Source: a virus
Length of the DNA: 56,049 nucleotides
IMG/VR virus record: IMGVR_UViG_3300031520_000003
Coordinates: 1-56,049 of that record
Strand: one strand, 5' to 3'
Position 1 is the stretch's first letter. Every line of letters begins with the position of its first letter. The position numbers and the translations under genes were made by a program. Below are positions 4,834-56,049 of the stretch, in pieces. The notes below the pieces were generated by a model. The model had not been told where the DNA came from. It made no database searches and worked only from the letters and a program-made list of their open reading frames with translations.

Positions 4834-6099
4834 TTGAGAAGCCTCAACCTGTGGTATACTGGCTCTATAGGCTGTGCCCCTTGAGTTGCGAAGAACCCCT
4901 TTGATGGCCTGGTGGAAACAGCCTTGTTTTTGTTTCATGATCTTCCCCTTCATGATTTTCCCGAGGGACCTCGGGAACAGGTCATCGTCGAACGGACCGG
5001 TCACTATGGACGTGCTCTTGAGCAATTTCTGCACGAGCGAGGCATCACGATCTACGAGGTCCACCCACAAGAGCACACGTCGCGCAACAAAAGCGATAAG
5101 CGCGATGCACAGATGTTGGCAGCCCTCTTGTACAATCAGGTGGAGCGCGGTGTCTTGGTCACGGATGAAAACCAGATCGCCCGCAGGCTGGTGCCACCTC
5201 ATGAGACGGTGCAACTGCTGCAAGGTCTGGTCCAGCACCGATTGGAACTGGTTCGCGAGAGCACACAGCGCAAAAATAAGCTGACCGCCATCGCCGATGA
5301 ACTGTTTCCTGAATTGACCCAGGTCAATTCGGACCCCAACAGCCAGAGCGCGTTGGCACTCAGGAAACAGTATCCGTCCCCACAAGATATCGAGAAAGCA
5401 GCTCTCGACGCCTTGTGTGAGACGCGCCTGCATACGCGTCCAAGTCGCGCACATCTCGCAGAATTGCAAGACCTGGCACGCACGACGATTGGCACGAAAC
5501 ACCCATCCAGACGCACAAGCTTGCTTCTGGAGCAAAAGCAACTCATTGCCGAACTGCACTTGCTTCAAGAGCACCTGGACGTGTTGGAAGAGGAGATTGA
5601 AACCGCTCTGCACGAGAGTCGAGACGGACGAATCTTGCTCTCGTTTCCCACCATCGGGACGACGCAAGCCTCGATCATTTTGGCGCACATGGGCAACGTC
5701 GCCAACTATCCGCGTGCCTCGAAACTGCGTGGATATATGGGTTGGTCGCCTCACCAGCGACAGACAGGCACATCCACAGACAGCATGACCTTGACCAAGG
5801 GAGGCAATCCTCTGCTGAAGCAGACCATGTTCCTGGTCTCGCTCACCGCTATTCGGACGGATACGCAGTGGCGCACCCTCTACCACCGCCTGGTGCCGCG
5901 CATCTGCCAGTTCGACGAGCGAACCGGACGCTATAAAGGTCGCATGAAGGTGATCGGACGCATCGCGGGTCCGATGATCGGCCTGATCTATGTCCTGCTG
6001 AGAAAGGATTATGACCTGCTGGCTGCGCTTGCCGAGGGAGAGGACCCGCCGGAGCCGGAGGTGTACGAGCGGAGCAAACACCGCGTTCGTGGAAGCTAA
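4834..6099 (+). mobile_element. IS110-family element, degenerate copy (exact ends not determined)
   Basis: The transposase reading frame is open from TTG 4834 but is interrupted by TGA 4882-4884. It is inserted against the direction of the surrounding minus-strand operon. Confidence 0.6.
4912..6099 (+). CDS. IS110-family (DEDD) transposase, N-terminally truncated, probably defective
   Basis: VERTGHYG, KSDKRDAQMLA and the C-terminal SFPTIGTTQASIILAHMGNV...GGNPLLKQTMF motifs are present. The first catalytic G-I-D-V-x-K block is missing. Confidence 0.8.
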   Translation: METALFLFHDLPLHDFPEGPREQVIVERTGHYGRALEQFLHERGITIYEVHPQEHTSRNKSDKRDAQMLAALLYNQVERGVLVTDENQIARRLVPPHETVQLLQGLVQHRLELVRESTQRKNKLTAIADELFPELTQVNSDPNSQSALALRKQYPSPQDIEKAALDALCETRLHTRPSRAHLAELQDLARTTIGTKHPSRRTSLLLEQKQLIAELHLLQEHLDVLEEEIETALHESRDGRILLSFPTIGTTQASIILAHMGNVANYPRASKLRGYMGWSPHQRQTGTSTDSMTLTKGGNPLLKQTMFLVSLTAIRTDTQWRTLYHRLVPRICQFDERTGRYKGRMKVIGRIAGPMIGLIYVLLRKDYDLLAALAEGEDPPEPEVYERSKHRVRGS

Positions 6100-9853: not shown

Positions 9854-10243
9854 ATGTTTGAAGGCATGGCTGTTCTGATGACAGCCTTCTACACCATCCA
9901 AGGCGACTATTTCGCCACAGTACGCATCAGTGGCGATAATGACCACGGGTTGAATCTCATCGTCCTGCATACGTCAGGTGCCAACACCGATGAGACCAAA
10001 GAATACAATTTCCTCGGTCACGAAGCCTCGCCCAAGATCGAGGTCGAGAACCGCGACATGCTGATTGTCCTCGCCAGGCGCACTGGCATCGTCGTGGCAA
10101 GCCAGGTCTACGAGGTCGATACTGGTGCAGTGCCACAAGGCTACTTGCTCATTCCGCGCGGAGGCTTCAACATCCTGTGTGAGCAAGATGAGCAGATGCG
10201 TGAGAGTGAGCTTTCGCCGGAGAAGGTGGAGGTGCAAGCGTGA
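9854..10243 (+). CDS. hypothetical protein
   Basis: 129-aa ORF with GAAGGGGG upstream of the ATG. Confidence 0.6.
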   Translation: MFEGMAVLMTAFYTIQGDYFATVRISGDNDHGLNLIVLHTSGANTDETKEYNFLGHEASPKIEVENRDMLIVLARRTGIVVASQVYEVDTGAVPQGYLLIPRGGFNILCEQDEQMRESELSPEKVEVQA

Positions 10244-10569
10244 GTCAACAACACACGTTGGGCAGTGCCGCAGAACTGCGCCGTCATCTCGACACGCTCA
10301 AGGCCGAACGCGATGAGGCACGCGACGCACTTCTTGCGGCACAGACAAGGGTTGCGGAGCTAGAGCAGGCTCTCGACCGTGCGACCGCAGCGCCTTCGGA
10401 GAGTATCAAACGGTTACAGCGAGACAACAAGGCGTTGCGGCACCTGGTGCGCGACCTGCATGCCGGATGGATGACTGGCGGTCCTGATCTCTCTTGGCAT
10501 GAATGGAGCGAGATACGAGCAGCGTCAAAAGGGCGTGTTGCTGAACTGTTGGGAGAGGTGCAGCAATGA
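10240..10569 (+). CDS. hypothetical coiled-coil protein
   Basis: 4-nt overlaps with both neighbouring genes. Confidence 0.6.
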   Translation: MSQQHTLGSAAELRRHLDTLKAERDEARDALLAAQTRVAELEQALDRATAAPSESIKRLQRDNKALRHLVRDLHAGWMTGGPDLSWHEWSEIRAASKGRVAELLGEVQQ

Positions 10570-11558
10570 GCGTGTATTACAACGACATTGATCCCTTTTG
10601 CTGTGCTGTCTTGAAAAAGAATATTGAACGTGGTTTGTTGCCAGGAGGATATGTCGATGGACGAGACATCCGAGAAGTACAGGCAAGTGAGCTTGTGGGA
10701 TACCAGCATGTCCATCTCTTTGCAGGGATCGGCGGATTCCCTCTTGCTTTTGAACGAGCAGGATACCCTCAGCATCTCAGAACCATCACAGGCGGGTTTC
10801 CTTGCCAGGATATTAGCAATGCGGGAAAGCAAGCGGGTATCACAGGCGAGAGAAGCGGCCTCTGGAACGAGATGTACCGTCTCATTTGCGATCTACGACC
10901 TGATGACATCGTTGTGGAGAACGTCGGTGCATTGGTTAATCGGGGACTCTCTACCGTACTTGGGAACCTGGCCCAAGCAGGGTATGATGCACAATGGCGT
11001 TGTTTACGAGCTTCAGACTTCGGTGCGCCTCACCAGCGAGAACGCATCTTCATTGTGGCCTACCCCGCGTGCAATGCCTGGCAACTACAGCAAAGTCAAT
11101 GGGAGAATATACGAAACAAGCCTACAATCAATGGCCCGTCGAGGCTTACTTTGGCCCACTCCACAGAGCAGGGATTACAAGAGCGGCGATCATCCCGATT
11201 CACCACGAGCGAAACGCAAGCAGCAGCAGGGATGGACACCGAACCTGAACGATGCCAGGAATGCGACATTGCCACCATCTCAGGAGACCAGAGACGGGAT
11301 AGTCGGTACGTTGAGACGTACCGGCTATCAGGGCAGTCTCAATCCATCCTGGGTCGAGACGCTTCAAGGCTATCCCATTGGCTGGACCGATATAGATGGC
11401 CCGCAGGACCTGGACAGCCTCAACATGAATGGGAGCCACCGCGCGTCATAGGGAAGCAAGCCCATCGGGTCGCACGTCTGAAGGCATTAGGGAATGCTAT
11501 CGTGCCGCAATGCGCGGAGTACATCGCACGCTGCATCATGGCAGGGGAGGGCGTATGA
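10566..11558 (+). CDS. dcm: DNA (cytosine-5)-methyltransferase
   Basis: Motif I LFAGIGG, motif IV GGFPCQDIS, motif VI ENV, motif VIII QRERIF and motif X GNAIVP, in canonical order. Confidence 0.9.
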   Translation: MSVYYNDIDPFCCAVLKKNIERGLLPGGYVDGRDIREVQASELVGYQHVHLFAGIGGFPLAFERAGYPQHLRTITGGFPCQDISNAGKQAGITGERSGLWNEMYRLICDLRPDDIVVENVGALVNRGLSTVLGNLAQAGYDAQWRCLRASDFGAPHQRERIFIVAYPACNAWQLQQSQWENIRNKPTINGPSRLTLAHSTEQGLQERRSSRFTTSETQAAAGMDTEPERCQECDIATISGDQRRDSRYVETYRLSGQSQSILGRDASRLSHWLDRYRWPAGPGQPQHEWEPPRVIGKQAHRVARLKALGNAIVPQCAEYIARCIMAGEGV

Positions 11559-14018: not shown

Positions 14019-14236
14019 ATCCGTGGCTCATTGGACTTGCTTTCGTTGGCGTTCTCTGTCTGCTGTATGGTTGGATCGTCATGATCGTACGCAGAAATCA
14101 TGCTCAGATGATGGCTGAGGTAGAAAGGAAGAATAGGCAGTTGATCCGTGAGCAGTTTCCGGCTTCCGACTATGAAAGCATGTATGAGAACCTGCTCAGT
14201 CATGCAGAAGAGGAGGCGGCGAAACTGCGTGCATAA
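14015..14236 (+). CDS. small single-pass membrane protein
   Basis: N-terminal TM segment LIGLAFVGVLCLLYGWIVMIV. Confidence 0.6.
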   Translation: MNPWLIGLAFVGVLCLLYGWIVMIVRRNHAQMMAEVERKNRQLIREQFPASDYESMYENLLSHAEEEAAKLRA

Positions 14237-15098
14237 TCCGCTTCATTGGCTCTATCAGCAATCGGGAGGGGTACTGCGCTCTGGGTGTGTCTCCTGCTAC
14301 TTGTGCGGCGGCACCTCGACAGAGACACACGCCGTTTCCAAGACGGTAGCCGATACCTTCAATTCCCACTATCTCGCACAGTGTCCCTCATCCTCGTGGG
14401 TGTGCGATGCCTGTGCATGGTATCTCGACAATAGTGGCGTGCATCCCGATTTCCGCAAAATGAGCCTCATCGTCCAACGCGACTCGTGGCAGAATTGGCA
14501 ACGTCCTACCATGAAACACGATGTGACGCAGTGGCTTACCTTTGGCCTTGATGGTGATGCCTACTTGGTTGTTTCGCTCTCCAAAAAGAAACATATCCTG
14601 ATGCAGGCACCGCTCAATGTCTCGTCAAGTCGAGATATAGCTGTTCAAGTCGAGGAAAACGTCGCATTCTTGTCCTTGTGGCAATGGGAAGCGATGGACG
14701 GACCGTTTCTGCGCTTGCTTGCGTTAGGACATGGCAAAGGGGAGATTCTTTCAGGCAATCTCTACGGTCAAACATTACGCAAGCATGGTCAACTCATGGA
14801 AGCGTTGCGGCTCAATCAGGAACTAGAGCCGTACCGCAAGAGTCCACAGATCGAGTTATTGAGTTACGTCACGATTGTGGAAGAAAGGACACAAGACGAT
14901 GATCGAGGAACAGGAACAACAGGCATTTCAGAGAGAGCTAGAACTGAGGCAAGTGGCGTCAGTGCTGCTAGGAGCCGTGTGGAAGAAGATCGACCCCGAG
15001 TACAAGAGCAAGTACCGAGCAGAGATTTGGCGGCAATTCGAGGAGAGGCTCCAGACCTCGGCACGGATTACGCCCAACTTGACCTCTTTTCTCAGTAA
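14229..15098 (+). CDS. csf1: Csf1-like (type IV Cas8-like) large subunit, zinc-finger N-terminus
   Basis: CVSCYLCGG...CPSSSWVCDAC Cys cluster; first gene of a Csf-type cluster. GTG 14229 lies 12 nt after GGAGG (alternative start ATG 14202; ORF open from 14148). Confidence 0.45.
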   Translation: MHNPLHWLYQQSGGVLRSGCVSCYLCGGTSTETHAVSKTVADTFNSHYLAQCPSSSWVCDACAWYLDNSGVHPDFRKMSLIVQRDSWQNWQRPTMKHDVTQWLTFGLDGDAYLVVSLSKKKHILMQAPLNVSSSRDIAVQVEENVAFLSLWQWEAMDGPFLRLLALGHGKGEILSGNLYGQTLRKHGQLMEALRLNQELEPYRKSPQIELLSYVTIVEERTQDDDRGTGTTGISERARTEASGVSAARSRVEEDRPRVQEQVPSRDLAAIRGEAPDLGTDYAQLDLFSQ

Positions 15099-15291
15099 GT
15101 TCTGTACTCTGTTTCAGGTCGCTGAGATTGGGATCGATGCCGATGAACGCCTAGAGGTTGAACGCATCTTAGCAGGCGGGTACGGCAATCCAGACGACAT
15201 TTTGTACGGCTTGCGTCGGGACCCGCAAGTGTGTGTCTTGTTGTTGAGAAATCGGTTAGATGAGGAGAAAGTCAATGCAGGCTACAAGTAG
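14899..15291 (+). CDS. cas11: Cas11-like small subunit (tentative)
   Basis: About 130 aa and helix-type (EEQEQQAFQRELELRQ...), lying between the large subunit and the Cas7-like gene. Overlaps the csf1-like 3' end out of frame. Confidence 0.35.
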   Translation: MIEEQEQQAFQRELELRQVASVLLGAVWKKIDPEYKSKYRAEIWRQFEERLQTSARITPNLTSFLSKFCTLFQVAEIGIDADERLEVERILAGGYGNPDDILYGLRRDPQVCVLLLRNRLDEEKVNAGYK

Positions 15292-16219
15292 TTATCGATT
15301 TGAGGGGATCGCACGCGCTCTGAGTGCGGTCTCGCATCTGGGGGAGAGCACAGGCGGCACCACCGCCATTTTCCGACGCGAGAAAGTCTGTGCAGGTGGG
15401 CGTGTAATCGAGGTGCCTATCCTCTCAGGCAATGCCTTTCGGGGACAACTCAGAGACACGGGTATGCGTTTCATGCTGAGGGAATTAGGTGATCCTCAGC
15501 TTTCCCCTCCTGCGTTCCACTTCCTGACATCGGGAGGCGCACTCACCAAAGACAGTGGACGTGGACTTGACATCGGACAGGCGCGCCGTTTACAAGCGTT
15601 GATTCCACTGGTGGGTGTCTTTGGCGGTGCGTGTGGACGCCAAATCCTTCCAGGCAAACTGCAAGTCGGTAAGTGGTATCCCGTGTGTCAGGAGCTTGTT
15701 GATCTCTTGCCACAGAAGTATCACCAGGAGGACCTGGTGAGCATCTACGACTTGACCGATCTTCACAGCTTTACCCGTACCGATGATGCCAAATCTGAGA
15801 AATGGCAAAAGTTCTTGCCACAAGAGCAGAGAAGCCTGTTAGAGGCTCCCAAGACAAAGACAGCCAAAGATGGGACAGAAGTTGCAGACAAGCCAGGCGT
15901 GGCGCAACAAATGCGCTACTCCCAGGAGGTGCTGATCGCAGGAACGCGCTTCTCCTGTTGGCTTCAACTGCAAGATGTGACCGATCTCGAGTACGAAGCG
16001 TTTGCCTCGGCTCTGATCGAATGGAGTAAGGCTCCCTTTGTCGGGGGACAATCTCGACATGGCTGCGGCGAGGTCGAGTTGCGCTTTGACAACTGGATGA
16101 GCATATCTCCTCTCGCGCGTGATGAGAAAGGGGTCGGATTACCTCTTGGCACGGCGTATCATGACCATTTGCAGACACAGCGTGAAGCTATTCTCGATGC
16201 GCTCAAGGAGATCGCGTGA
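15275..16219 (+). CDS. csf2: Csf2-like Cas7-family RAMP protein
   Basis: VPILSGNAFRGQLRD, LTSGGAL and the C-terminal Gly loop VGGQSRHGCGEV. ATG 15275 follows GAGGAGAAAG. Confidence 0.6.
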   Translation: MQATSSYRFEGIARALSAVSHLGESTGGTTAIFRREKVCAGGRVIEVPILSGNAFRGQLRDTGMRFMLRELGDPQLSPPAFHFLTSGGALTKDSGRGLDIGQARRLQALIPLVGVFGGACGRQILPGKLQVGKWYPVCQELVDLLPQKYHQEDLVSIYDLTDLHSFTRTDDAKSEKWQKFLPQEQRSLLEAPKTKTAKDGTEVADKPGVAQQMRYSQEVLIAGTRFSCWLQLQDVTDLEYEAFASALIEWSKAPFVGGQSRHGCGEVELRFDNWMSISPLARDEKGVGLPLGTAYHDHLQTQREAILDALKEIA

Positions 16220-16980
16220 TGGATCAGCCCATGCGGATTATCGCGTACCTTGCTGGTTCCATTGCGCTCGCCCGTCCTGAAGACCTGGCCCTTGATGGAC
16301 TGCTTGCCTATCAGGTGCTCCGCAAGCATTTCGGCTCTGACTTCTACACGTTGCCAGACCCCAAAGACGTGCTGTACTTTGCCCGCCTCCCACTCGAGAT
16401 GCGTGGTGCTCCTGATGCGTCTGTAGAACGTCTGCAGACGGGCGAGGTCTGGTACCATCGTGGACAGGGCATTGCGGATGAGAGCCTGTGGTACTGGGCG
16501 TGTTCCTCGGCACAAATCGAGGTCAAGGGACGTGACACACAGTATTGGAACAAGCGTTTTGATACGCAGGCATCGCTCTCGGACCGGATTGATTTCGGGG
16601 GGCGTGTCGAGAAAATCTTGATTGAGCAAGGTCGCTACAAAGCCTATCATATGCCCCTTCCTACGCTTGTTACAGACAAGGTGACGTGGTATGCCTATGG
16701 GGATATGGAAGCAGTTGCCGATGTGCTCATTGCGATCGTGGCGATGGGCAAAAAAAGAGTGCAGGGGAACGGACATGTTTTGCGGTGGGAGATCACACCA
16801 ATGGATGAGGATTATTCGCTCTGGCATGATGATCGTCTCATGCGCCCCGTCCCAGGTCCGCTTCTGCGGGGCATACAGTGGGATATTCCGTTCAATCTTC
16901 AGCACAGTGCGTTTCGCGCTCCACAATGGCACGCAGCCAATCAAGCACTGTGCGTGGTTGGAGGCAAGAGGCATGCGTGA
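16219..16980 (+). CDS. csf3: Csf3-like Cas5-family RAMP protein
   Basis: N-terminal LALDGLLAYQV and C-terminal Gly loop GKKRVQGNGHV. TGATG coupling to csf2, with AAGGAG upstream. Confidence 0.5.
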   Translation: MDQPMRIIAYLAGSIALARPEDLALDGLLAYQVLRKHFGSDFYTLPDPKDVLYFARLPLEMRGAPDASVERLQTGEVWYHRGQGIADESLWYWACSSAQIEVKGRDTQYWNKRFDTQASLSDRIDFGGRVEKILIEQGRYKAYHMPLPTLVTDKVTWYAYGDMEAVADVLIAIVAMGKKRVQGNGHVLRWEITPMDEDYSLWHDDRLMRPVPGPLLRGIQWDIPFNLQHSAFRAPQWHAANQALCVVGGKRHA

Positions 16981-17722
16981 CATGGAACGGTTCCAACACG
17001 AATTGTACGCAACGTTCCCAGCATTTCAGCGCAAGGTGGAGCAAGCGCAAAGACTGGTTGAGGATGCTTTGCAGCAGATGAGCCGTCCGTATATCGCCAC
17101 CAGTAGCGGCAAGGACTCGTGTGTGACCTCTCACCTGGTCTGGTCTGTCAATCCTGATGTGCCTGGCGTCTACTTTGATGCCGATTGCGCGTTCCCTGAG
17201 ACGCGAGACTACTTCGAGAGGCTTTCACGCCATCGTACGATCATCACGTGGAAGACGGAGCCACTGCTGGATACCTTTGCACGGTGCGGCGGTCCTACGG
17301 CTCCTGGTATCGGCAACGCGACGATGGAGAGCACCGTGTACGCTCCTCTTCGCTCACTCTTCGCTGAGTATCATTTTGACGGCGTGTTCTTGGGACTGCG
17401 AGCACAGGAGAGCGAGGGACGGTCCAAGAGTGCGCAATTCCACGGCTCGCTGTACCGATACAAGCGAGATGGTGTGTTGCGCTGCTTGCCTGTTGCCACG
17501 TGGACGCATCAAGATATTTGGGCGTATATCGTCAGTCGCAACCTGGACTATAACCGTGTCTATGACACGATGCAGGACATGCCGATTGCAGATAGACGCG
17601 TGTCCTATTGGGCAGGTGAGACAAAGAGACGTTGGGGAAGATGGACGTTTTTGAAGAAGCACTATCCTGATCTCTGGAACCGATTTGCTGAGAGATTCCC
17701 TGAAGTGCGAGAATATGTATGA
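16973..17722 (+). CDS. cysH: PAPS reductase / CysH-like PP-loop enzyme
   Basis: PP-loop motif SSGKDS. ...FLGLRAQESEGR... is typical of the PAPS_reduct family. ATG 16973 lies 9 nt after GGAGG and overlaps the csf3 stop. Confidence 0.8.
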   Translation: MRDMERFQHELYATFPAFQRKVEQAQRLVEDALQQMSRPYIATSSGKDSCVTSHLVWSVNPDVPGVYFDADCAFPETRDYFERLSRHRTIITWKTEPLLDTFARCGGPTAPGIGNATMESTVYAPLRSLFAEYHFDGVFLGLRAQESEGRSKSAQFHGSLYRYKRDGVLRCLPVATWTHQDIWAYIVSRNLDYNRVYDTMQDMPIADRRVSYWAGETKRRWGRWTFLKKHYPDLWNRFAERFPEVREYV

Positions 17723-21159: not shown

Positions 21160-22503
21160 ATGAGTAATACACATCAAACGAGCCCCTTGACAGACAGAGA
21201 GCGGTTTCTCTTGAACATTCTCATTCTCAACCTTCCCGAATGGGAGGTCACACAGATTGATGAAGATGAGGACGATTACGTGATTACAGCACGTCCGTCC
21301 TCGTCTCTCTCTATCTGCCCCTTCTGCGGATATGATACTCTCTACAAGCATGGCGACCTTGAGCAACACATCCGCGATGTGCCAAGTCATGGCAAGCGCG
21401 TGCTGATTCAGGTGACCCGTCAACGCTATCGGTGCAAACACTGCACGAAAACGAGTTTTGAGACGTTGCCTGACATTGATGAGAAACGGTTCTGCACCAA
21501 GCGGCTCATTACGTTCTTGCAACGACGATCCATGAATGATGATCGCACGTTTCTCTCCCTGGCGGAAGAAACTGGCCTCCATGAAAAAACGGTTCGTCGT
21601 ATCTTTCACGATTATGTTCTTGAGTTAGAACGTTCAACGCATTTTGCAACACCCCGAATCATGGGCATGGATGAACTCCATGTTATCCACCAGCCACGAG
21701 CGATTATTACCAATATTGAGAGAAACACGGTAGTTGAGTTCCTGGCAGACCGCAAAAAACAAACGATCATCCGGTATCTTTCGAGTGTGCCAGATCGTGA
21801 ACACATAGCTCTCGTGTGCATCGACATGTGGCAGCCGTACCGTGAGGCCGTGAGAGAAGTCTTGCCGCACGCAATCATTGTGATTGATAAGTTCCATGCC
21901 GTAAAATTAGCGAATCAAGCGATGGAAGTTGTCCGAAAAGAGGTTCGCGCTAGCCTCACGGAAAAACAACGTCGAACGCTCATACATGATCGCTTCTTGT
22001 TGCTCAAGCGAGAAAGCGAGTTAAAGGAAAAAGAACGATTGACGCTGGAAGCATGGACGGGCAGCTTCCCAACGCTCAAAAAAGCGTATGACCTCAAGGA
22101 AGCGTTCTATGAGATATGGGATGCTCCTGATAAAGATGAGGCACATCAACGCTACTTTGCATGGCAGGAGCAAATTACACCAGAGGTTACTAGTGCCTTT
22201 ACACCTATTGCTTTAACCGTCGAAGAATGGGGCGATGAAATCTTTGCCTACTTCGATCATCGCATTACTAACGCCTACACGGAATCACTCAATGGTTTAG
22301 CAAGGGTCGCGAATCGATTGGGTAGGGGGTACTCTTTTCAGGTATTACGGGCAAGATTACTCTACGGAATAGGCCAGCATCGGCGACGAAAAGCAAAAGT
22401 GTCGAATGTGGAATCGGACTCTGAGGGAGTGGCCCTGTCCACACTCGAACAATCTGTTCTGGATTCGGGTTTAGAGACCAAAAACACGGTAGAAGCCGAA
22501 TAA
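21160..22503 (+). CDS. ISL3-family transposase
   Basis: N-terminal zinc-finger pattern CPFCG...YRCKHC, then the DDE_Tnp_ISL3-type core (IDMWQPY, VIDKFH, TNAYTESLNG). Confidence 0.9.
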   Translation: MSNTHQTSPLTDRERFLLNILILNLPEWEVTQIDEDEDDYVITARPSSSLSICPFCGYDTLYKHGDLEQHIRDVPSHGKRVLIQVTRQRYRCKHCTKTSFETLPDIDEKRFCTKRLITFLQRRSMNDDRTFLSLAEETGLHEKTVRRIFHDYVLELERSTHFATPRIMGMDELHVIHQPRAIITNIERNTVVEFLADRKKQTIIRYLSSVPDREHIALVCIDMWQPYREAVREVLPHAIIVIDKFHAVKLANQAMEVVRKEVRASLTEKQRRTLIHDRFLLLKRESELKEKERLTLEAWTGSFPTLKKAYDLKEAFYEIWDAPDKDEAHQRYFAWQEQITPEVTSAFTPIALTVEEWGDEIFAYFDHRITNAYTESLNGLARVANRLGRGYSFQVLRARLLYGIGQHRRRKAKVSNVESDSEGVALSTLEQSVLDSGLETKNTVEAE

Positions 22504-30061: not shown

Positions 30062-33000
30062 CTATAATTGCCGCTGAAAGAGTTTCGTGAAATCGCCCAG
30101 GTCCGGACCCGACACGGCTTGAATCGTGAACCAGGGCACAGGGACGCCACCTGGTCCCGTCGTAAAGACCGTTTTCACACTGCGAATAAGCATCTGCACA
30201 TCCGTCAGATTATGCTCAGGCACGAATACGCTGAAGAGTTGCCCAGGGGCAAGTCCCCCACGCAGCGTTGTCGCAGTGAGCATCTGTCCAATCACGCCGT
30301 ATTGCTGGACTCTCGCTTGAGCCAGTTGGTCGCCTGCCGCCTTGGTGAGGCCCGTGCCATCTTCAACATTCTCCACAATGCCTGAGCCGCCTCGCAGTTG
30401 TGCTCTGGCCTGCTGTCCTGGCACGTCGTCGTACTGCGAATAGGTGAGGTACTGGCCTGTTCCTGTGAAGGTGATCGTTTGGGTGCTGTCATAGATTGGC
30501 TTGGACGGGTCTGCTGTGACAATAGGACTGCCAATCGTGTAATAGAAGTCTTTTCCGGTATCGATACCGGAGATGCCTACCAATGCAGGAGGCCCGTTGT
30601 TGACCGTGATGGTTGGCGCGGAAGCGAGAGCATTGCCCAGCGTCCAGGAAATTGAGACGCTATCCCCTTGATGCTGCTCGTTGATCGCAATGGTGGCGAG
30701 TACATTGGTGATGTATTGCCGATTGCGGTATAAATCACCCTCAACGCGCACAGTGAGGCCCGCATCTAAGAAATCTCCTCCATTGGTCGAACCGATCCAC
30801 GGCGCTGGAACCGAGGTACGCCCTTGCAGATTGAACCGCATGTTTTTGTCGATGTACCACCAGCCATTCGGGAATTTCTTCGCCAGGTCGGAAAAGTTGG
30901 CGTCCAGTGACTTGAATCCGTACTGTGTGCTCGGAATGATCGCGCCATTGCCGATAGCAGGCGAGTGTGCCGACAACGTGAGATCGAGGACTTGCGGCGT
31001 GAAGGCTGGATTGGTACTGCTGAGTCGTAAGCGCGTCAGGACCTGTCTTGCAGTCACATCGTCGCCTTGCGGCTGCATCCTGAGTTGATAGAAACGCGCG
31101 GTGCCGCCTCCGGTGCGCAGGCCACACGTGCCTCCCGCAAGCGGCGTTGGATCGGTGTAGGTCGCGACAGCCAGACCATCAAAGAAGGCCGTGATGACGT
31201 TGCCTAGCATCGTTACACGCACGCGGTGATAGGTATTCACTGGCACACGTTGGAAGTTGATCGCCGATGACGCCACCAGGGACCGTACTCCTGCCTCGAC
31301 TTCGTAGATCGCCAGAGTGTTCGGGTTGCCTGCATTGGAAGACGCATCCTGGACGACCACCTCGTAGAAGGTGTTGGTATCGGTGTAGCGCCAGACCAGG
31401 CCACCGGAATCGCTTGCGTCCATATCCGTGAAGAGATCGATATCCGTCGCCGTGAGCGTGCTATACAGACAGAGCGCGGAGGCTCCGCCCGTTGCGACCA
31501 TGCGTCTGTTGGCGCTGTCAAAGGTATAGGTGGCCGCGGTTCCCCCAGCGCGGTAGGTGCTCGTATAATTGGCTGCCGTATTGGTCGCAAAGCTGTCGAT
31601 CGTCGGGTCTGGCTGGATACCCAGGCCCGGAATGCTGCCGCCATTTTGCGCGGTCACATCCTGCCACGTGGCCCCATTGTCAATCGAGGTATCCACGCCC
31701 AATGCGGTTCCTGCTGGCAGATTCCTATTCCAGGCCACAAGGCTATTGCCCAGCCGTCCGACGTTTTGCAGCGACAGTGGCGTTCCTATGCGCGTGCCTG
31801 TGGCGTTGAACGCGCTAGTCACCAGCCAAGTGAGCCCTTGGAGGATGACGGTCACATTGGCGTTGTTGGAGGTCAGCGTGGCGCGTATTTGCAGATTGAC
31901 GCCTGAGAGGTTGAGCCCTGGTGTCAACTGCGGGATAGCCCCACCATTCGCACAGGCTTGCCAGGTGCCCCCGATGGAGGTCTCAACGAGGAGGCTGGCA
32001 TTATTGGGGACCGTCGCATTCCACTGAATCACTGATGAGCCAACGGACCCAACCGAGGTGAGGTTCGTGTAGGGCGAAACACGGTTTCCACTCAGTTGAT
32101 AGATGATGCCGAACTCCTTGAAATACGCATTATGGCGCGTGTTCGTGAGACTGTTGAAGTGGCGATATCCCACGCCGCCACTGCTATACGTCGTGTCGGT
32201 GGCGTTGATGTAGAGCACATCGTTGACATAGACCTTGTGATTGGAGCCTGTTGCGACCACTTTGAGTCGATACCAGACCCCAGATGCGAGACTGACGGAA
32301 AAGACTGCAACTCCGAAGAGATTGCCAACGGTGCCACTACTGTTGCTGCCCCGATCCAGGTGGATTCCGTTCGCATCAATGTAGGCTGCGTAGCCATAGG
32401 TATTGTTCGTGTTGCCCCAGTTCGACGTGCGATAGACGATGCCATAATTGCCCGAAGTGTCTGATGAGGAATTGCCGAATTGCACGTCCAGTTCAATCGT
32501 GCCATCCGACCAGGTTCCAACGAAATCGAGACGTGCTCGCGCATCCAGTCCACCGTCGCATCTGAGATAGTAGCTCGACAGATTGATGCCATCAGCCGGA
32601 TTACTGCCAAAGAGCGTCCTGCTGCCAACGGAGCCATCACCGTAGCTCTTAAAGGCGCCAGTCAACTCCAATGCGCCAGAACTGCCAGACGCGATGCTGG
32701 TCACGTTGCTGAGTGTGCCTGCATTCCAGTCTGCCTGCGATGTGGTGACGTTGGCGACATCCGTTTTGGTGGCAGCGTAACTGGGCGAGATCGTCACGTT
32801 CATGTCGTAGAGAATGGGTGAGATCGTCGGGTCCGATCCGCCGATAGCCAGGGTGTGGCGAAATTGGATGCTGAGACCAGTCATGTTCTGACCTGGCACA
32901 AGCCCCGGAATAGGACCGTGATTGGTGCATGGCTGCCAGGTTGCTCCACCATCAAGCGTGGTCTCAATCGTCACCTGTGGCGTTTTCGCATTTTGCGTGG

Positions 33001-35344
33001 CTGGCGATGCGTTCCAGTTGACTTGCGAGGACCTGGCAATGCCCACGCTGCCAAGCGAAAAGATCGGCGAGGTGCGATAGCCTGGATTGGTGTAGGAGGT
33101 CACTTTCGTCAGCGACACAGTGGAATAGCCGACATTGCTGATGACGATATTCTTTTGCAAGTTGTGCAAGAAAAAGGTCTGTTTGAGCGTGCTGGTGCTA
33201 TCAAAAAGCTGAATCGTATCAAAATAGGCCGTGTAGGTTCCATTCGGGTCGCCTTCCAGTGCCACTTCAATGGAAGCCAGCGTTTTTCCGGCTGCAGTCG
33301 AGAGGTCGAGTTGTCGGAAGTAGCGCGCATCGCTCGCATAGCCGGAGAGATCGCCGCCTGGATGCAGGGTGATCGACTGTTGATCGTAGATCGGAAGTCC
33401 GCGTAAGATGGTGCCATCGGTGCAGATGCCATCCACGCCTGCGATGGCCGCAGGACTGGTAGAGCTAATCCAAATGAAATAGCGTAAGGTGTCCCCAGCA
33501 GCGAGCGCAACAGCCCCTTCCCAAATTTTGATGTAGGCGTAGTTATTGGCGCTTCCTTGCTGCGAGGTGCCTTGCAATTTGAGCGCATCGTTGGGAAACA
33601 GCGTCAACTGGTCATTGACGCCATACGTCCCGACCAGGGTACTGCCTGGCGCGGACCAATCTGCTGTTCTGGTCTCCGTGACCGAGACGGTTCCGCCCGC
33701 CGGAGTCAATTCCAGGTCGCCATCGCCGACGTTGCCCGTGGCCGTGGTATTCGAGAGCGTCCCCTGTGCCAACTGCAAGCCCGTGGTCTCGCGCCTCGAT
33801 GCATACTGAGCGGTGATGCCCTCGTTGGCGAGCGTGTTCAGGAGATCGGTTGCAATCGCGCCTGCGGAGAGATTGACCCATTCAGGACCGACAAAGACGC
33901 GGTTGAGCGCGGTCTCATGATTGTCGATGCAGCCTATTTTGGTGAGGATAGTCTTGTTCGGTGAGAGGATGCTCGCTTCCGCCGTTTTGACCTCGCCAGT
34001 AAAAAAGACCCCGCGCTGCGAGTCCGAGATCGTGACCGTCTGACCTTTGGTATAGTGCTGCGTGCCCGTATCATCGCGGATCGTGAAATAGATGATCGAA
34101 GGCGTCTCTAGCGTATCCTCAAGCGAAAAGGAGCCTTCGAGGATGTGTACCGGAATGCCACTCACGCTGATCGTGATCCCCAACACAGGCGCAGGAGCCA
34201 CGCTGGACAGAACGGTGGTCTCCGCACTATAGGTTGCAAGTTGCGTATCGGTGATCGTGGCGACATACAAGCCTGTGATTGTGGTCGCCTCTGCCGCATA
34301 GGTCGTAAGCTGTGTGTCCACAATGGTTGTGGTCACGTTGGCGCGCGTGGTCGCGTTGGCATCATAGCCTGCAAGCTGTGGATCGCTTATGGATGTGCTG
34401 CCGCTTCCGGCAATGGTCGCATCTGCACTGTAGCCAGGCAGAGAGGTATCCGTGATCGGCGTGTTTCCACTGCCTGTTATGGTCGCATCTGCCGCATAGG
34501 TAGGTAATTGCGTATCGGTGATCGTGGTGGTGTAGTTGGTCGTCGGCGAAGACGCGGCAGACGTGGCATCAGCCGTATAGCCTGGGAGTTGCGTATCCGT
34601 GATCGTTGGAACGATTCCAGAGCCCGCTATCGTCGCATTGGCGTCATAGCCAGGTAATTGCGTATCACTGATCGAGGTTGTGCCACTGCCTGCTACGCTT
34701 GTCTCAGCGCTATAGGTCGAGAGTTGTGTATCCGTGATCGTCGTGGTGTAGTTGGTGTTGGAAGCCACTCCATCAGTGACCGTATAGCTGTCAAAGGTCA
34801 CGATATCTGAGGTCAGGTTGAGTTTGGTGTAGAAGCCAAAGAGACCCGAGGTGAGTGAGGTATCGGTGACAGAGGCAATCGTCCAGGTTGATGGCTCGCT
34901 TGTGCCATCGGCCCACATTTTGCCTTGAATGGTTGTGCCAATGACGCTCAGACGAAGCCAATAGAACGTATTGGCGGAAAGCGTCACCGTTGCGGTTCCA
35001 AGCGTGGTCGAGGTGCCACTGACTGTTTTGGCAAGCGTCAGCGTCGTCCCAGTCACGCTCAGCCTGTAGCGGCTCGAAGTCGTCCCAGATCCGCTTTGCC
35101 TGGTCACCAAACCAAAGCCGTCAGAGGTGGAAGACACCTGGAAGCGGATACGGCTATTGGTATCGGGTGGCGTCGTGGTACCAAGCGCGGTATTCGTGAT
35201 CGCTGTCGCACCGGTGCCTGTGCCCTCGCTTGGAGTGACTGAAAACGACACAGAGCCTTGCAGCACTTGCCAGACTTGAGTGTCTGAAGCAGTGCCTAGC
35301 CCTGTGCTCGTTCTATTGAAAGTGTCCTGTCCAAGCGTCGCCAT
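30062..35344 (-). CDS. tail fibre / host-recognition protein with LamG-like lectin modules and about 10 tandem 20-aa repeats
   Basis: 1760 aa, directly downstream of the tape measure and a distal tail gene. Three ConA/LamG-like blocks (for example YWLRLSVIGTTIQGKMWADG, WYRLKVVATGSNHKVYVND, YHRVRVTMLGNVITAFFDG). Confidence 0.8.
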   Translation of the reverse strand: MATLGQDTFNRTSTGLGTASDTQVWQVLQGSVSFSVTPSEGTGTGATAITNTALGTTTPPDTNSRIRFQVSSTSDGFGLVTRQSGSGTTSSRYRLSVTGTTLTLAKTVSGTSTTLGTATVTLSANTFYWLRLSVIGTTIQGKMWADGTSEPSTWTIASVTDTSLTSGLFGFYTKLNLTSDIVTFDSYTVTDGVASNTNYTTTITDTQLSTYSAETSVAGSGTTSISDTQLPGYDANATIAGSGIVPTITDTQLPGYTADATSAASSPTTNYTTTITDTQLPTYAADATITGSGNTPITDTSLPGYSADATIAGSGSTSISDPQLAGYDANATTRANVTTTIVDTQLTTYAAEATTITGLYVATITDTQLATYSAETTVLSSVAPAPVLGITISVSGIPVHILEGSFSLEDTLETPSIIYFTIRDDTGTQHYTKGQTVTISDSQRGVFFTGEVKTAEASILSPNKTILTKIGCIDNHETALNRVFVGPEWVNLSAGAIATDLLNTLANEGITAQYASRRETTGLQLAQGTLSNTTATGNVGDGDLELTPAGGTVSVTETRTADWSAPGSTLVGTYGVNDQLTLFPNDALKLQGTSQQGSANNYAYIKIWEGAVALAAGDTLRYFIWISSTSPAAIAGVDGICTDGTILRGLPIYDQQSITLHPGGDLSGYASDARYFRQLDLSTAAGKTLASIEVALEGDPNGTYTAYFDTIQLFDSTSTLKQTFFLHNLQKNIVISNVGYSTVSLTKVTSYTNPGYRTSPIFSLGSVGIARSSQVNWNASPATQNAKTPQVTIETTLDGGATWQPCTNHGPIPGLVPGQNMTGLSIQFRHTLAIGGSDPTISPILYDMNVTISPSYAATKTDVANVTTSQADWNAGTLSNVTSIASGSSGALELTGAFKSYGDGSVGSRTLFGSNPADGINLSSYYLRCDGGLDARARLDFVGTWSDGTIELDVQFGNSSSDTSGNYGIVYRTSNWGNTNNTYGYAAYIDANGIHLDRGSNSSGTVGNLFGVAVFSVSLASGVWYRLKVVATGSNHKVYVNDVLYINATDTTYSSGGVGYRHFNSLTNTRHNAYFKEFGIIYQLSGNRVSPYTNLTSVGSVGSSVIQWNATVPNNASLLVETSIGGTWQACANGGAIPQLTPGLNLSGVNLQIRATLTSNNANVTVILQGLTWLVTSAFNATGTRIGTPLSLQNVGRLGNSLVAWNRNLPAGTALGVDTSIDNGATWQDVTAQNGGSIPGLGIQPDPTIDSFATNTAANYTSTYRAGGTAATYTFDSANRRMVATGGASALCLYSTLTATDIDLFTDMDASDSGGLVWRYTDTNTFYEVVVQDASSNAGNPNTLAIYEVEAGVRSLVASSAINFQRVPVNTYHRVRVTMLGNVITAFFDGLAVATYTDPTPLAGGTCGLRTGGGTARFYQLRMQPQGDDVTARQVLTRLRLSSTNPAFTPQVLDLTLSAHSPAIGNGAIIPSTQYGFKSLDANFSDLAKKFPNGWWYIDKNMRFNLQGRTSVPAPWIGSTNGGDFLDAGLTVRVEGDLYRNRQYITNVLATIAINEQHQGDSVSISWTLGNALASAPTITVNNGPPALVGISGIDTGKDFYYTIGSPIVTADPSKPIYDSTQTITFTGTGQYLTYSQYDDVPGQQARAQLRGGSGIVENVEDGTGLTKAAGDQLAQARVQQYGVIGQMLTATTLRGGLAPGQLFSVFVPEHNLTDVQMLIRSVKTVFTTGPGGVPVPWFTIQAVSGPDLGDFTKLFQRQL
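34190..34760 (-). repeat. In-frame tandem repeats (period about 66-72 bp) encoding TITDTQLPGY.A.AT units
   Basis: The recurrent DNA core TTGCGTATC(C/G)GTGATCG and the recurrent peptide, read directly. Confidence 0.8.
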
Positions 35345-50946: not shown

Positions 50947-51318
50947 TTACCCAAAAAAGCCGCAGAAGACGGTGCCTTGTGGCAACGCAGGCAGTGGCAC
51001 GATATACACAAAGCGTTGTGTCGCCTGATTGACGATCTGTGTCACGGTAGCGCGTTGCTGCACCAGTGTTCGCATGATTGAGCGAGACAGAGGCTCCAGG
51101 TCCTCTTCCGCGATGAACAGATATTTGGGGTCGGCGTCATGCTGGGCGTACAGTGTGGCGAACACCTCTTGTACGGACTCACACGTGACCTCTGGCAGCG
51201 TCACCATCGCGCTGTGGTAATCGCCAATGGTGTGCTGATCGGCGAGTTTCTGTGCAAGCATCTTGCGCGTCACCATCGGATATTCTGCTACATCTGTCTT
51301 TCGGTTGATGATCGTCAT
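50947..51318 (-). CDS. hypothetical protein
   Basis: ATG 51318 follows GGAGGAAGG-N6. The ORF stays open to GTG 51426 through the duplicated repeat. Confidence 0.55.
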   Translation of the reverse strand: MTIINRKTDVAEYPMVTRKMLAQKLADQHTIGDYHSAMVTLPEVTCESVQEVFATLYAQHDADPKYLFIAEEDLEPLSRSIMRTLVQQRATVTQIVNQATQRFVYIVPLPALPQGTVFCGFFG

Positions 51319-51407
51319 ATCAATCCTTCCTCCTGTCCAATCGGCTGTCCTGGTCTCCGTGATCGAGACCGTCTTTCGGTTGATGATCGTCATATCAATC
51401 CTTCCTC
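51296..51407 (-). CRISPR. Candidate mini-array: 37-bp repeat, 38-bp spacer, 37-bp repeat
   Basis: GTCTTTCGGTTGATGATCGTCATATCAATCCTTCCTC occurs perfectly at 51296-51332 and 51371-51407. The 38-bp insert matches tail-fibre bases 33652-33689 at 32/38 positions. Confidence 0.4.
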
Positions 51408-51472
51408 GGCCCGTGAATGCCGCCACGTCTTTCCCTGCCTTCCCTTCCTTCGTATCGAAAGGTGCCTGAAGA

Positions 51473-51517
51473 AAGACAAAAACGGCATTCGACTCCTACG
51501 AAGGAATCGAACGCCGT
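51473..51517 (-). terminator. Rho-independent terminator, minus-strand specific
   Basis: A 16-bp stem with a 4-nt loop (51482-51517). The two non-Watson-Crick positions are G-U on the minus-strand RNA but A-C on the plus-strand RNA. A U-run follows on the minus strand. Confidence 0.7.
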
Positions 51518-52108
51518 TAATCGTTTGCCGTCACTGGCACGTTCACAGATGTTTCAAACCCGATACGGGAAGCTGGGATGGAGGATGCCTTGTGTTCGTC
51601 ATCCTACCCTGATGGAATGCGTATCATGCAGAAGCATTCCATCCTCATCACCTGCATTGCGAAACGGATCCGCACAACACAAGGCTTTTCCTGCTCCATA
51701 TGGAGCAAGCTGGCTTTCCTCCTCGCCAGGACACTTTCAACAATTGGGTATGCTCAGAGTATAGCACACACAAGACGAATCAGGAAGCTTCGTGCTGCTC
51801 TGGAAACAGAGGGACCGTCATGAACCCCATGCCTAAAGGCGAGGGGCTTGTGTCTGGACTCCACTTCAACTCTCTTGAGCAGAATGCCTCAAGAGCTTCA
51901 GTTTCACGGTCCGACACATCAAGGCACCATGACAAGGTACCTGTCCTTTCTCAGCAGAGCGGTCAAGCTACTTCCGAAAAAGGAACGTTGTTCGACCAAG
52001 AACATTTTACCTTCGCGTGGATTTCCGCGAAGAACGCCTTATGTTCAATTATCAAAGAACCATGAGGAAAACTGTCTCTCTCTGGCGAACCAGAGTGTCT
52101 TACCCTCA
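51518..52108 (-). ncRNA. Candidate ~600-nt structured non-coding transcript / late-operon leader
   Basis: Bounded by a consensus promoter and a terminator. The track lists no minus-strand ORF of 60 aa or more here. Several perfect hairpins are present (52080-52095, 52011-52032, 51611-51643). Confidence 0.4.
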
Positions 52109-52114
52109 GGACAG

Positions 52115-52143
52115 AGTATAGCACATTGACATCTCGGTGTCAA
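52115..52143 (-). promoter_or_regulatory. Consensus sigma70 promoter, leftward (TTGACA-N17-TGcTATACT)
   Basis: Minus strand: TTGACA (52138-52143), 17-nt spacer, TATACT (52115-52120) preceded by TGC. Confidence 0.7.
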
Positions 52144-52154
52144 GCGTGTATCAT
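52126..52154 (+). promoter_or_regulatory. sigma70-like promoter, rightward (TTGACA-N17-TATCAT), leaderless start
   Basis: TTGACA 52126-52131 and TATCAT 52149-52154. ATG 52161 lies only 6 nt after the -10 box. Confidence 0.6.
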
Positions 52155-52160
52155 GGCACT

Positions 52161-52337
52161 ATGAGAAAGAAACAAGCTAATGCAACAACAATTCGACTTG
52201 AACTCGCAGATCGAGAAGCGATTGCACACATCCGAGAACTCTACGGATGTTCGTCTGATAGTGCAGCAATCAAACTCGCAGTACGCATGGTGGCAAGACA
52301 AGAGCTACCTACACGCGCCATTCCTCCTCGTGACTAG
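52161..52337 (+). CDS. ribbon-helix-helix (CopG/Arc-like) DNA-binding protein
   Basis: TIRLELADREAIAHIRELYGCSSDSAAIKLAVRMVA fits a beta-strand plus two helices. The ORF is open from 52137. Confidence 0.6.
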   Translation: MRKKQANATTIRLELADREAIAHIRELYGCSSDSAAIKLAVRMVARQELPTRAIPPRD

Positions 52338-52579
52338 AAGTCAGGGGCATCCTGGCGCGACCTGGTGAAATCCCGTCGCCATTGGTCGGGCATGAAGGAG
52401 GTGAGCCATCGAACGGGTCCGATCCGACCCTTCTCGACGCGAGCCGTCAGCTCTGCATAGCCCCCGTTACGCCGCTTAATGTAGCCAATTTCTCGATCCA
52501 GCCACTTGACCCAGGTTGGCGAGAGATGCTTGAGTTTGATCGCTGCATGCCGATCTGTGTCGTCTGTAGATGTCCCCAT
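52334..52579 (-). CDS. hypothetical protein
   Basis: 81-aa ORF, convergent with the RHH gene. Confidence 0.5.
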   Translation of the reverse strand: MGTSTDDTDRHAAIKLKHLSPTWVKWLDREIGYIKRRNGGYAELTARVEKGRIGPVRWLTSFMPDQWRRDFTRSRQDAPDF

Positions 52580-55922: not shown

Positions 55923-56049
55923 TCCAGAGCAGGGCTGATTGCCTCGTTGCCTCAGTGCGTCTTCTTCTGGCTGTTGCCTCAGCCCATTTTCTTGCGCATG
56001 CATTCCACACTCCCCTCCCAACAGCAGTGCGAGGAAAGCGCACTCTGCG
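55923..56049. repeat. Terminal direct repeat, copy 2 (circular-closure overlap)
   Basis: Identical to bases 1-127. Confidence 0.95.

Follow-up and report, generated by a model that had tools for sequence, protein, structure and literature searches.

Off-target ('neo-CRISPR') integration of spacers, the units stored in CRISPR arrays, has been demonstrated in over-expressing E. coli, and a few chromosomal loci have been proposed as cases of it. Nivala, Shipman and Church reportedly described such integration in vivo in 2018 (Nat Microbiol 3:310), together with natural candidates, as relayed by citing papers. To our knowledge Cas1-Cas2 is the sole enzyme that yields a repeat-sized duplication around a spacer-sized foreign fragment. 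Cas1-Cas2 of Pyrococcus furiosus carries out full-site off-target integration in vitro at non-CRISPR sites, with G/C borders one repeat-length apart and at as little as 43% identity to the repeat (PMC6698737). The literature that was searchable yielded no report of off-target spacer integration in a phage. According to PMC6858448, Faure et al. 2019 described mini-arrays of phages as well as solitary repeat units. Here we analyze the 56,049-nt IMG/VR virus record IMGVR_UViG_3300031520_000003 (positions 1 to 56,049, together referred to as the window), a phage sequence in which two exact copies of a 37-nt repeat enclose a 38-nt insert that resembles the phage's own tail-fibre gene.

A preliminary description, made from the letters alone, preferred to see in this unit a virus-borne mini-array with one spacer against the fibre gene of a competitor, and named as its alternative a recombination scar in which a captured fibre fragment had come to be enclosed by a duplicated translation-initiation region. 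Comparison with related sequences shows that the unit very probably arose when 38 bp were inserted at a native gene start and a target site of 37 bp was duplicated. As to the agent, a one-off ectopic (off-target) spacer integration by a host Cas1-Cas2 is the most likely candidate, at roughly even odds. Any link to CRISPR probably concerns the origin of the unit and not its function.

Layout of the unit and its insertion site

The repeat (GTCTTTCGGTTGATGATCGTCATATCAATCCTTCCTC) is present in two copies identical at 37/37 positions, and no third copy is found in the window at up to 3 mismatches. Together with the insert it forms a unit of 112 nt with a 37/38/37 layout and a period of 75 nt (Table 1), which agrees with the layout of a CRISPR array (at least two direct repeats of roughly 23-50 nt, kept apart by a unique spacer about as long); 37 and 38 bp are within the usual lengths of CRISPR repeats and spacers. 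The insert matches a segment of the 1760-aa fibre gene at 32/38 positions on the same strand, against 23/38 for the runner-up among ungapped matches elsewhere in the window, and a binomial estimate for a chance match of 32/38 over approximately 112,000 positions amounts to about 3e-9. This homology is confined to the insert and two more bases (GT on the plus strand, coinciding with the start of the repeat), giving 34/40. Given that the flanks outside both copies are unrelated to the insert, a tandem 75-bp duplication is excluded. The duplicated target reads G...C, so that the 5' base is a G on both strands (estimated chance about 0.07).

On the minus strand each repeat copy consists of GAGGAAGG-ATTGAT-ATG-ACG-ATC-ATC-AAC-CGA-AAG-AC, i.e. 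a Shine-Dalgarno site, an ATG and 7 codons. The insert encodes VSITETRTADWT in frame with the 123-aa open reading frame (ORF) that follows (ORF123), which is also the frame of the fibre's own VSVTETRTADWS, and the 75-nt period leaves the ORF open through the unit. Most of what the preliminary description had reported on the unit is hereby reproduced: the mismatch-free repeat with its 38-bp gap, the CRISPR-like geometry, the diverged fibre match beyond chance, and a Shine-Dalgarno site, six-base spacing, ATG and 7 codons per repeat within an open 75-bp frame. The internal hairpin it had noted does exist, but is weak (-5.3 and -4.1 kcal/mol) and not significant in comparison to shuffled sequences (z -1.0 and -0.6).

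An artefact of the assembly was considered solely because the sequence stems from a metagenome; we could find no point in its support and regard its probability as practically nil. The window is identical to ENA contig k141_413917, and the k=141 assembly behind this contig spans the entire 112-nt unit. In the k=31 Logan assembly made from SRR8416121, the repeat's first 30 nt close one contig and its last 30 nt open another; a break 30 nt (the k-1 overlap) into the repeat on both sides is the behaviour of a true 37-nt repeat, and it is seen in independent k=31 assemblies of two sequencing runs. Sequences from ERZ27247748 and SRR8416121 are 100% identical and may represent one data set. The window and the ENA contig are permuted forms of one circular genome of 55,922 bp; the window has identical ends of 127 nt (1-127 and 55923-56049).

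As judged from the sequences compared, the 37-mer is a native phage ribosome-binding site plus the 5' end of a conserved gene and not an imported CRISPR repeat. ORF123 has a codon-usage score of +0.25 bits/codon in its own frame (0.15-0.29 for confirmed genes of the phage), with negative scores in the other five frames, and an exhaustive HMMER search yields 23 homologues, the nearest at 60% (P0023) and 59% (P0024) identity. The N-terminus is conserved among these (MTIINRKTDVAEYPMVTR in the window, (M)MIVNRKADTAQYPIVTR in P0023 and MMRTPVRKSDTAEYPIVTR in P0024), and a Shine-Dalgarno-like motif lies upstream of 26/32 genes in this genome. On the contig that carries P0023 (L044, run SRR22405847) the gene-start site (CAGGGAAGGATGAGATGATGATCGTCAATCGAAAGGC) is single and without insert, it matches the 37-mer of the window ungapped at 27/37 positions, and the k=31 contig continues uninterrupted through the start of the ORF123 homologue; the relative thus has an empty site. 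The repeat of a CRISPR array is expected to be non-coding and to lack single-copy homologous sequence in relatives, and on both counts the 37-mer differs.

The AlphaFold2 model of ORF123 (built with the homologue alignment, pLDDT 81) is confident from approximately residue 35, and the first 30 residues are predicted to be disordered. With respect to its function, no Pfam, PHROG or PADLOC family match and no significant PDB fold match was obtained. The family was not found in IMG/VR, and the TerL relatives present there (at most 71% identity) have neither an ORF123 homologue nor a comparable repeat unit. Word-indexed protein searches missed the self hits for two queries and were treated as uninformative.

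A sibling strain is present in SRR22405847; its nucleotide identity is 96% in the tail region and rises to 98.3% near the terminase genes. On either side its contigs stop 30 nt inside the repeat, and the duplication appears to be common to the two strains, as far as these breakpoints can tell. ORF123 and approximately 1 kb downstream of the unit show 100% identity in the two strains, which indicates that this region was shared recently. Look-ups of capsid and tail proteins revealed no further strains.

Other differences between the strains were observed as well. In the TerL gene (L042 against L002, 1888-2047) differences are clustered in a short patch next to an identical 1 kb, which suggests a recombination patch. 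A 546-bp segment at 51819-52364 is missing in the sibling (SRR22405847, L043) and contains back-to-back strong promoter-like sites (52115-52154) and an 81-aa ORF on the plus strand.

Table 1. Location of the repeat-insert-repeat unit and of associated features in the window (position 1 is the first nucleotide).
Feature	Position	Strand	Details
R1, upstream copy of the 37-bp duplicated target	51371..51407	-	GAGGAAGGATTGATATGACGATCATCAACCGAAAGAC; exact repeat; second Shine-Dalgarno site, ATG at 51393-51391
38-bp insert ('spacer'), a piece of a diverged fibre-gene homologue	51333..51370	-	Encodes VSITETRTADWT; 32/38 to 33652-33689, unique in the window
R2, downstream copy of the 37-bp target	51296..51332	-	Shine-Dalgarno site in use, ATG (51318-51316) and initial 7 codons of ORF123; start chosen by the gene caller; homologous to the single-copy gene start in L044
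ORF123, conserved 123-aa phage gene with duplicated 5' end	50947..51318	-	Codon usage, 23 homologues, AlphaFold2 model
Possible 148-aa isoform of ORF123 from the ATG of R1	50947..51393	-	Putative 25-aa N-terminal extension MTIINRKTVSITETRTADWTGGRID; frame open
Flank between terminator and R1	51408..51470	-	Purine-rich element AAGGCAGGGAAAGA, 13/14 to the Shine-Dalgarno flank of L044 (9/1000 shuffles reach the score, marginal)
Strong intrinsic-terminator-like hairpin with T run	51471..51518	-	17-pair stem, 8 G-C pairs, TTTTTGTCTTTC tail; located 64 nt upstream of R1; terminates the transcription unit before it
Own copy of the donor segment, in the 1760-aa fibre / distal tail gene (30062-35344, -)	33652..33689	-	6 differences to the insert; 38/38 in the sibling
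Array-less type IV-B module: Csf1, Cas11, Csf2, Csf3, CysH-like	14148..17722	+	PADLOC and Pfam hits; context only

Source of the insert and proposed agent of its insertion

A PF06439 domain is present in the 1760-aa gene, which comes after the tape-measure gene and a 277-aa tail gene; by position it is reasonable to regard its product as a fibre or distal tail protein. Counting the two shared flanking bases, the insert differs from this gene by three synonymous third-position changes (ACC/ACG, AGA/AGG, GCA/GCC) and by the replacements V/I and S/T. Such a pattern agrees with a copy taken from a fibre gene that is diverged but functional, although the test is weak (4/6 changes at third positions, p of approximately 0.10). 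Because the two repeat copies are identical at 37/37 positions while the insert differs by 16% from the own fibre, a recent capture from a more distant relative would fit better than a copy from the own genome that has since decayed. With its mostly synonymous or conservative changes, we judge the diverged fibre copy to be foreign DNA, as an off-target integration would require. In the sibling, the fibre segment agrees at every position with the window's own copy and hence also matches the insert at 32/38 positions. The nearest fibre relatives in IMG/VR have at most 42% amino-acid identity, and a degenerate pattern encoding VS[VI]TETRTADW[ST] (the peptide of the insert or of the own locus) returned nothing from IMG/VR or the JGI metagenomes.

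Two further remarks concern the fibre gene. Near its N-terminal part (34207-34756) it contains tandem repeats of 66-69 nt that encode units of the ...TDTQLPxY... type. A template repeat of a diversity-generating retroelement was rejected as an explanation of the paired segments: no reverse transcriptase domain is found among the 84 ORFs, the six differences are mixed and not adenine-specific, and the homology covers just 38-40 nt.

The sizes of 37 and 38 bp, the G...C borders and a donor in the fibre gene of a related phage are, taken together, best fitted by ectopic integration by Cas1-Cas2. The locus has what is expected of such an event: an exact target duplication around a single insert, an empty site in a relative, and a G (or C) at both integration borders. 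The ancestral state was very probably the flank, followed by the Shine-Dalgarno site, ATG and 7 codons and by the remainder of ORF123, an arrangement still visible in the related phage. In a cell also containing DNA of a related phage, the host Cas1-Cas2 would have targeted this phage's DNA once, in a full-site reaction. Both 3' ends of a spacer-sized fragment would attack opposite strands one repeat-length apart, each at a G, and gap repair would double the 37-bp target around the 38-bp fibre fragment. The product would have the layout of a one-spacer CRISPR even though the 37-mer would never have been a CRISPR repeat. Its persistence would be accounted for by R2, which retains an intact ribosome-binding site and start codon, and by an upstream start that is in frame and adds at most 25 residues to the disordered N-terminus; through this intact downstream start and in-frame upstream start the scar is probably tolerated.

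On this explanation a host with repeats of about 37 nt and spacers of about 38 nt is predicted; the sole hint at the host is given by distant TerL relatives in metagenome-assembled genomes of Chloroflexia (46%), Phycisphaeraceae (42%) and Thermomicrobiales (35%). Several observations weigh against Cas1-Cas2 as the agent. The phage lacks Cas1 and Cas2 (cas1, cas2, cas4 and cas6 give no Pfam hit among its 84 ORFs), so the agent must be assumed to be host-borne. An exact 38/38 donor, which the preliminary description had suggested seeking in the fibre gene of a sibling phage, was not found when searching IMG/VR with the exact 38-mer. The sibling shows the breakpoints of the duplication, but the sequence of its insert is not readable. 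Upstream of R1 the flank does not correspond to that of the relative in a simple collinear way, and the history may be multi-step. Finally, the homology of the insert overlaps the repeat by two bases (AC), which could indicate a mechanism based on microhomology.

This overlap would be explained by the main rival, a scar that is unrelated to CRISPR, a possibility that we hold to be real yet doubtful. Such a scar might have formed by capture of a 38-bp filler at a staggered double-strand break, whose 37-nt overhangs were filled up and joined around it, by template-switching into the fibre gene of a co-infecting relative, or by annealing through a Rad52-family protein. The native nature of the repeat and the empty site in relatives are in line with it, the phage encodes a Rad52/22-family protein, one junction shares two bases (AC/GT) with the donor locus, and the strains show mosaic recombination patches. 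Nevertheless, the other junction is without microhomology, and known routes of repair or template-switching do not predict a repeat-sized duplication together with a spacer-sized insert. Moreover, filler from the own genome should match at 38/38 instead of the observed 32/38, and a G starts both strands of the duplicated target, as at integrase sites (PMC6698737).

A transposon insertion was rejected, given that the duplication is too long, the insert is without transposon ends and the ISL3 and IS110 transposases of the phage do not fit. Known transposon target-site duplications measure approximately 2-15 bp, far below 37; those made by ISL3 transposases are about 8 bp and IS110 is not known to make any. 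The two transposase genes, one of the IS110 and one of the ISL3 family, lie at 4912-6099 and 21160-22503 (both on the plus strand). The 90% protein clusters of both transposases contain phage copies only, and the sibling has 441 extra nt beside the IS110 gene. The scan of the 84 ORFs also shows a C5 cytosine methylase (10566-11558, plus strand) and a family-2 glycosyltransferase.

The region upstream of R1 shows some peculiarities of its own. A purine-rich element (GAAGGAAGGGAAGGCAGGGAAAGAC, 51427-51450, minus strand) ends 19 nt upstream of R1, in GAAAGAC like the repeat, and the sibling has 7 extra nt here; part of it gives the 13/14 match to the Shine-Dalgarno flank of L044, and the element may be what is left of an earlier rearrangement. 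A third repeat of older date that was partly deleted was considered for this region and rejected, since the repeat-like element is not significant (242/1000 shuffles). In L044, four copies of GATCATAAGG(A) are found in both orientations at 9900-9990, just upstream of the ORF123 homologue, and have an operator-like look.

Function of the unit

A working virus-borne mini-array, as preferred in the preliminary description, would produce a guide RNA (crRNA) against the fibre gene of a competitor, for use by host Cas proteins or by the phage's own Csf complex, with the six mismatches sparing the carrier. The 37/38/37 layout is in favour of this proposal, and so is the unit's presence in the sibling strain. 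At the own locus the spacer's match is imperfect, with mismatches also among positions 1-8 from either end, as described for virus-borne mini-arrays (PMC6858448). In addition, the same phage has a type IV-B module, and a precedent exists in an archaeal virus, for which type IV-B together with a mini-array of one spacer has been described (PMC10848311).

The module itself, which the preliminary description had recognized as an array-less Csf module, is confirmed by PADLOC (E-values of 8.6e-19 for Csf1, 1.2e-13 for Cas11, 4.1e-73 for Csf2 and 5e-45 for Csf3) and by Pfam (PAPS_reduct, 3.6e-21). Its content of csf1, cas11, csf2 (Cas7), csf3 (Cas5) and a cysH-like gene, without cas6, adaptation genes or array, is that of a complete, standard type IV-B set, carried here by a tailed phage. 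The distance between the unit and the Csf genes is 34 kb, or approximately 19 kb the other way round the circle, and no evidence ties both loci. One of the 84 ORFs, other than the ten small Csf-flanking ORFs that were re-scanned, matches the PADLOC entry 'Unk_01, unknown small protein sometimes fused to CARF' with an E-value of 6.5e-20.

Even so, we consider a working mini-array quite improbable. Its repeat would have to be the Shine-Dalgarno site and start of a conserved gene that has a homologous single-copy site in a relative. Searches of five public collections, as suggested by the preliminary description for CRISPR and host sequences, revealed no array or other match: the full 37-mer has no exact match in IMG/VR, neither the 185,579 GTDB species genomes nor the JGI metagenomes contain its central 22-mer, and a blastn search with the 112-nt unit against PLSDB (plasmids) and INPHARED (phages) gave chance-level hits in unrelated genes only. 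None of the Rfam CRISPR-DR families matched the repeat, even at E of at most 10. Within these collections the repeat is thus unlike any CRISPR repeat of a host or known array, which leaves room for a near match in an unsampled host. The solved type IV-B complex is without RNA-processing subunits and assembles on non-CRISPR RNA (PMC7937560), and the large distance to the Csf genes also argues against the proposal. A crRNA function is not expected because a strong terminator lies upstream, a scan limited to sigma-70-type promoters gave no match between this terminator and R1, the hairpin of the repeat is not significant, the phage has no Cas6, and a transcript from the minus strand would have the same sense as the fibre mRNA. 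Taken together, the mini-array favoured by the preliminary description gives way to the other reading named there, and it is this scar, with a translation-initiation region doubled around a captured piece of fibre gene, that the evidence shows.

An intermediate proposal, in which ectopic Cas1-Cas2 integration would have created a newborn working mini-CRISPR that guides host Cas or the own Csf proteins against the fibre gene of a sibling phage, is in our estimation very improbable.

It might also be argued that the duplication is kept for coding or translation, whatever its origin: as a second start, as a 25-aa extension of ORF123 or for tuning of translation. The frame is kept by the 75-nt period and the insert is read in the stop-free frame of the fibre, the Shine-Dalgarno site and ATG are identical in both copies, the extension would join a stretch (residues 1-30) that is predicted to be disordered, and the unit is present in two strains. 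On the other hand, an in-frame open arrangement is estimated to arise by chance in about 1 in 5 cases, homologues at 56-60% identity do without such an extension, and evidence that the upstream start is used is lacking. We consider a coding reason unlikely.

Relation to described systems

If the integrase origin is true, the unit would be a natural case of off-target CRISPR spacer integration in a phage genome that has been retained in a wild population. It would mean that the adaptation machinery of a host can write into the genome of the invader itself, and would provide a concrete route for the birth of virus-borne mini-arrays. If the newborn mini-CRISPR were real, it would show how mini-arrays originate and give type IV-B a source of guides. 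A repeat-spacer-repeat geometry together with a spacer match to a related virus is insufficient to call a viral mini-array, and the repeat should first be checked against single-copy sites in relatives.

Compared with neo-CRISPR integration, the unit is alike in having a spacer-sized foreign fragment within an exact repeat-sized duplication of a non-CRISPR target, with G/C target borders, an empty site in a relative and an insert from a mobile element. It is unlike in that the target is a phage genome (instead of a host chromosome or plasmid) and a translation start, and in that the product is kept in two natural strains; its membership here follows from geometry only. Transposon target-site duplications share the direct duplication of a target flanking inserted DNA, whereas the 38-bp insert is without terminal inverted repeats and encodes nothing.

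With the virus-borne mini-arrays of Medvedeva et al. 2019 (PMC6858448) the unit has in common one spacer between two repeats in a virus without adaptation genes, and a spacer akin to a gene of close relatives with mismatches to the carrier's own locus. Those mini-arrays, however, use host-like CRISPR repeats in intergenic DNA, whereas the repeat described here is native coding and ribosome-binding sequence without any array match in the collections searched. The phage also resembles other carriers of type IV-B among mobile elements and viruses (PMC7937560; PMC10848311), having csf1, cas11, csf2, csf3 and a cysH-like gene and lacking Cas6, adaptation genes and an adjacent array. In Fuxivirus (PMC10848311), by contrast, the mini-array belongs to the type IV-B locus, whereas in the window the unit is 34 kb off and its repeat is the start of a gene.

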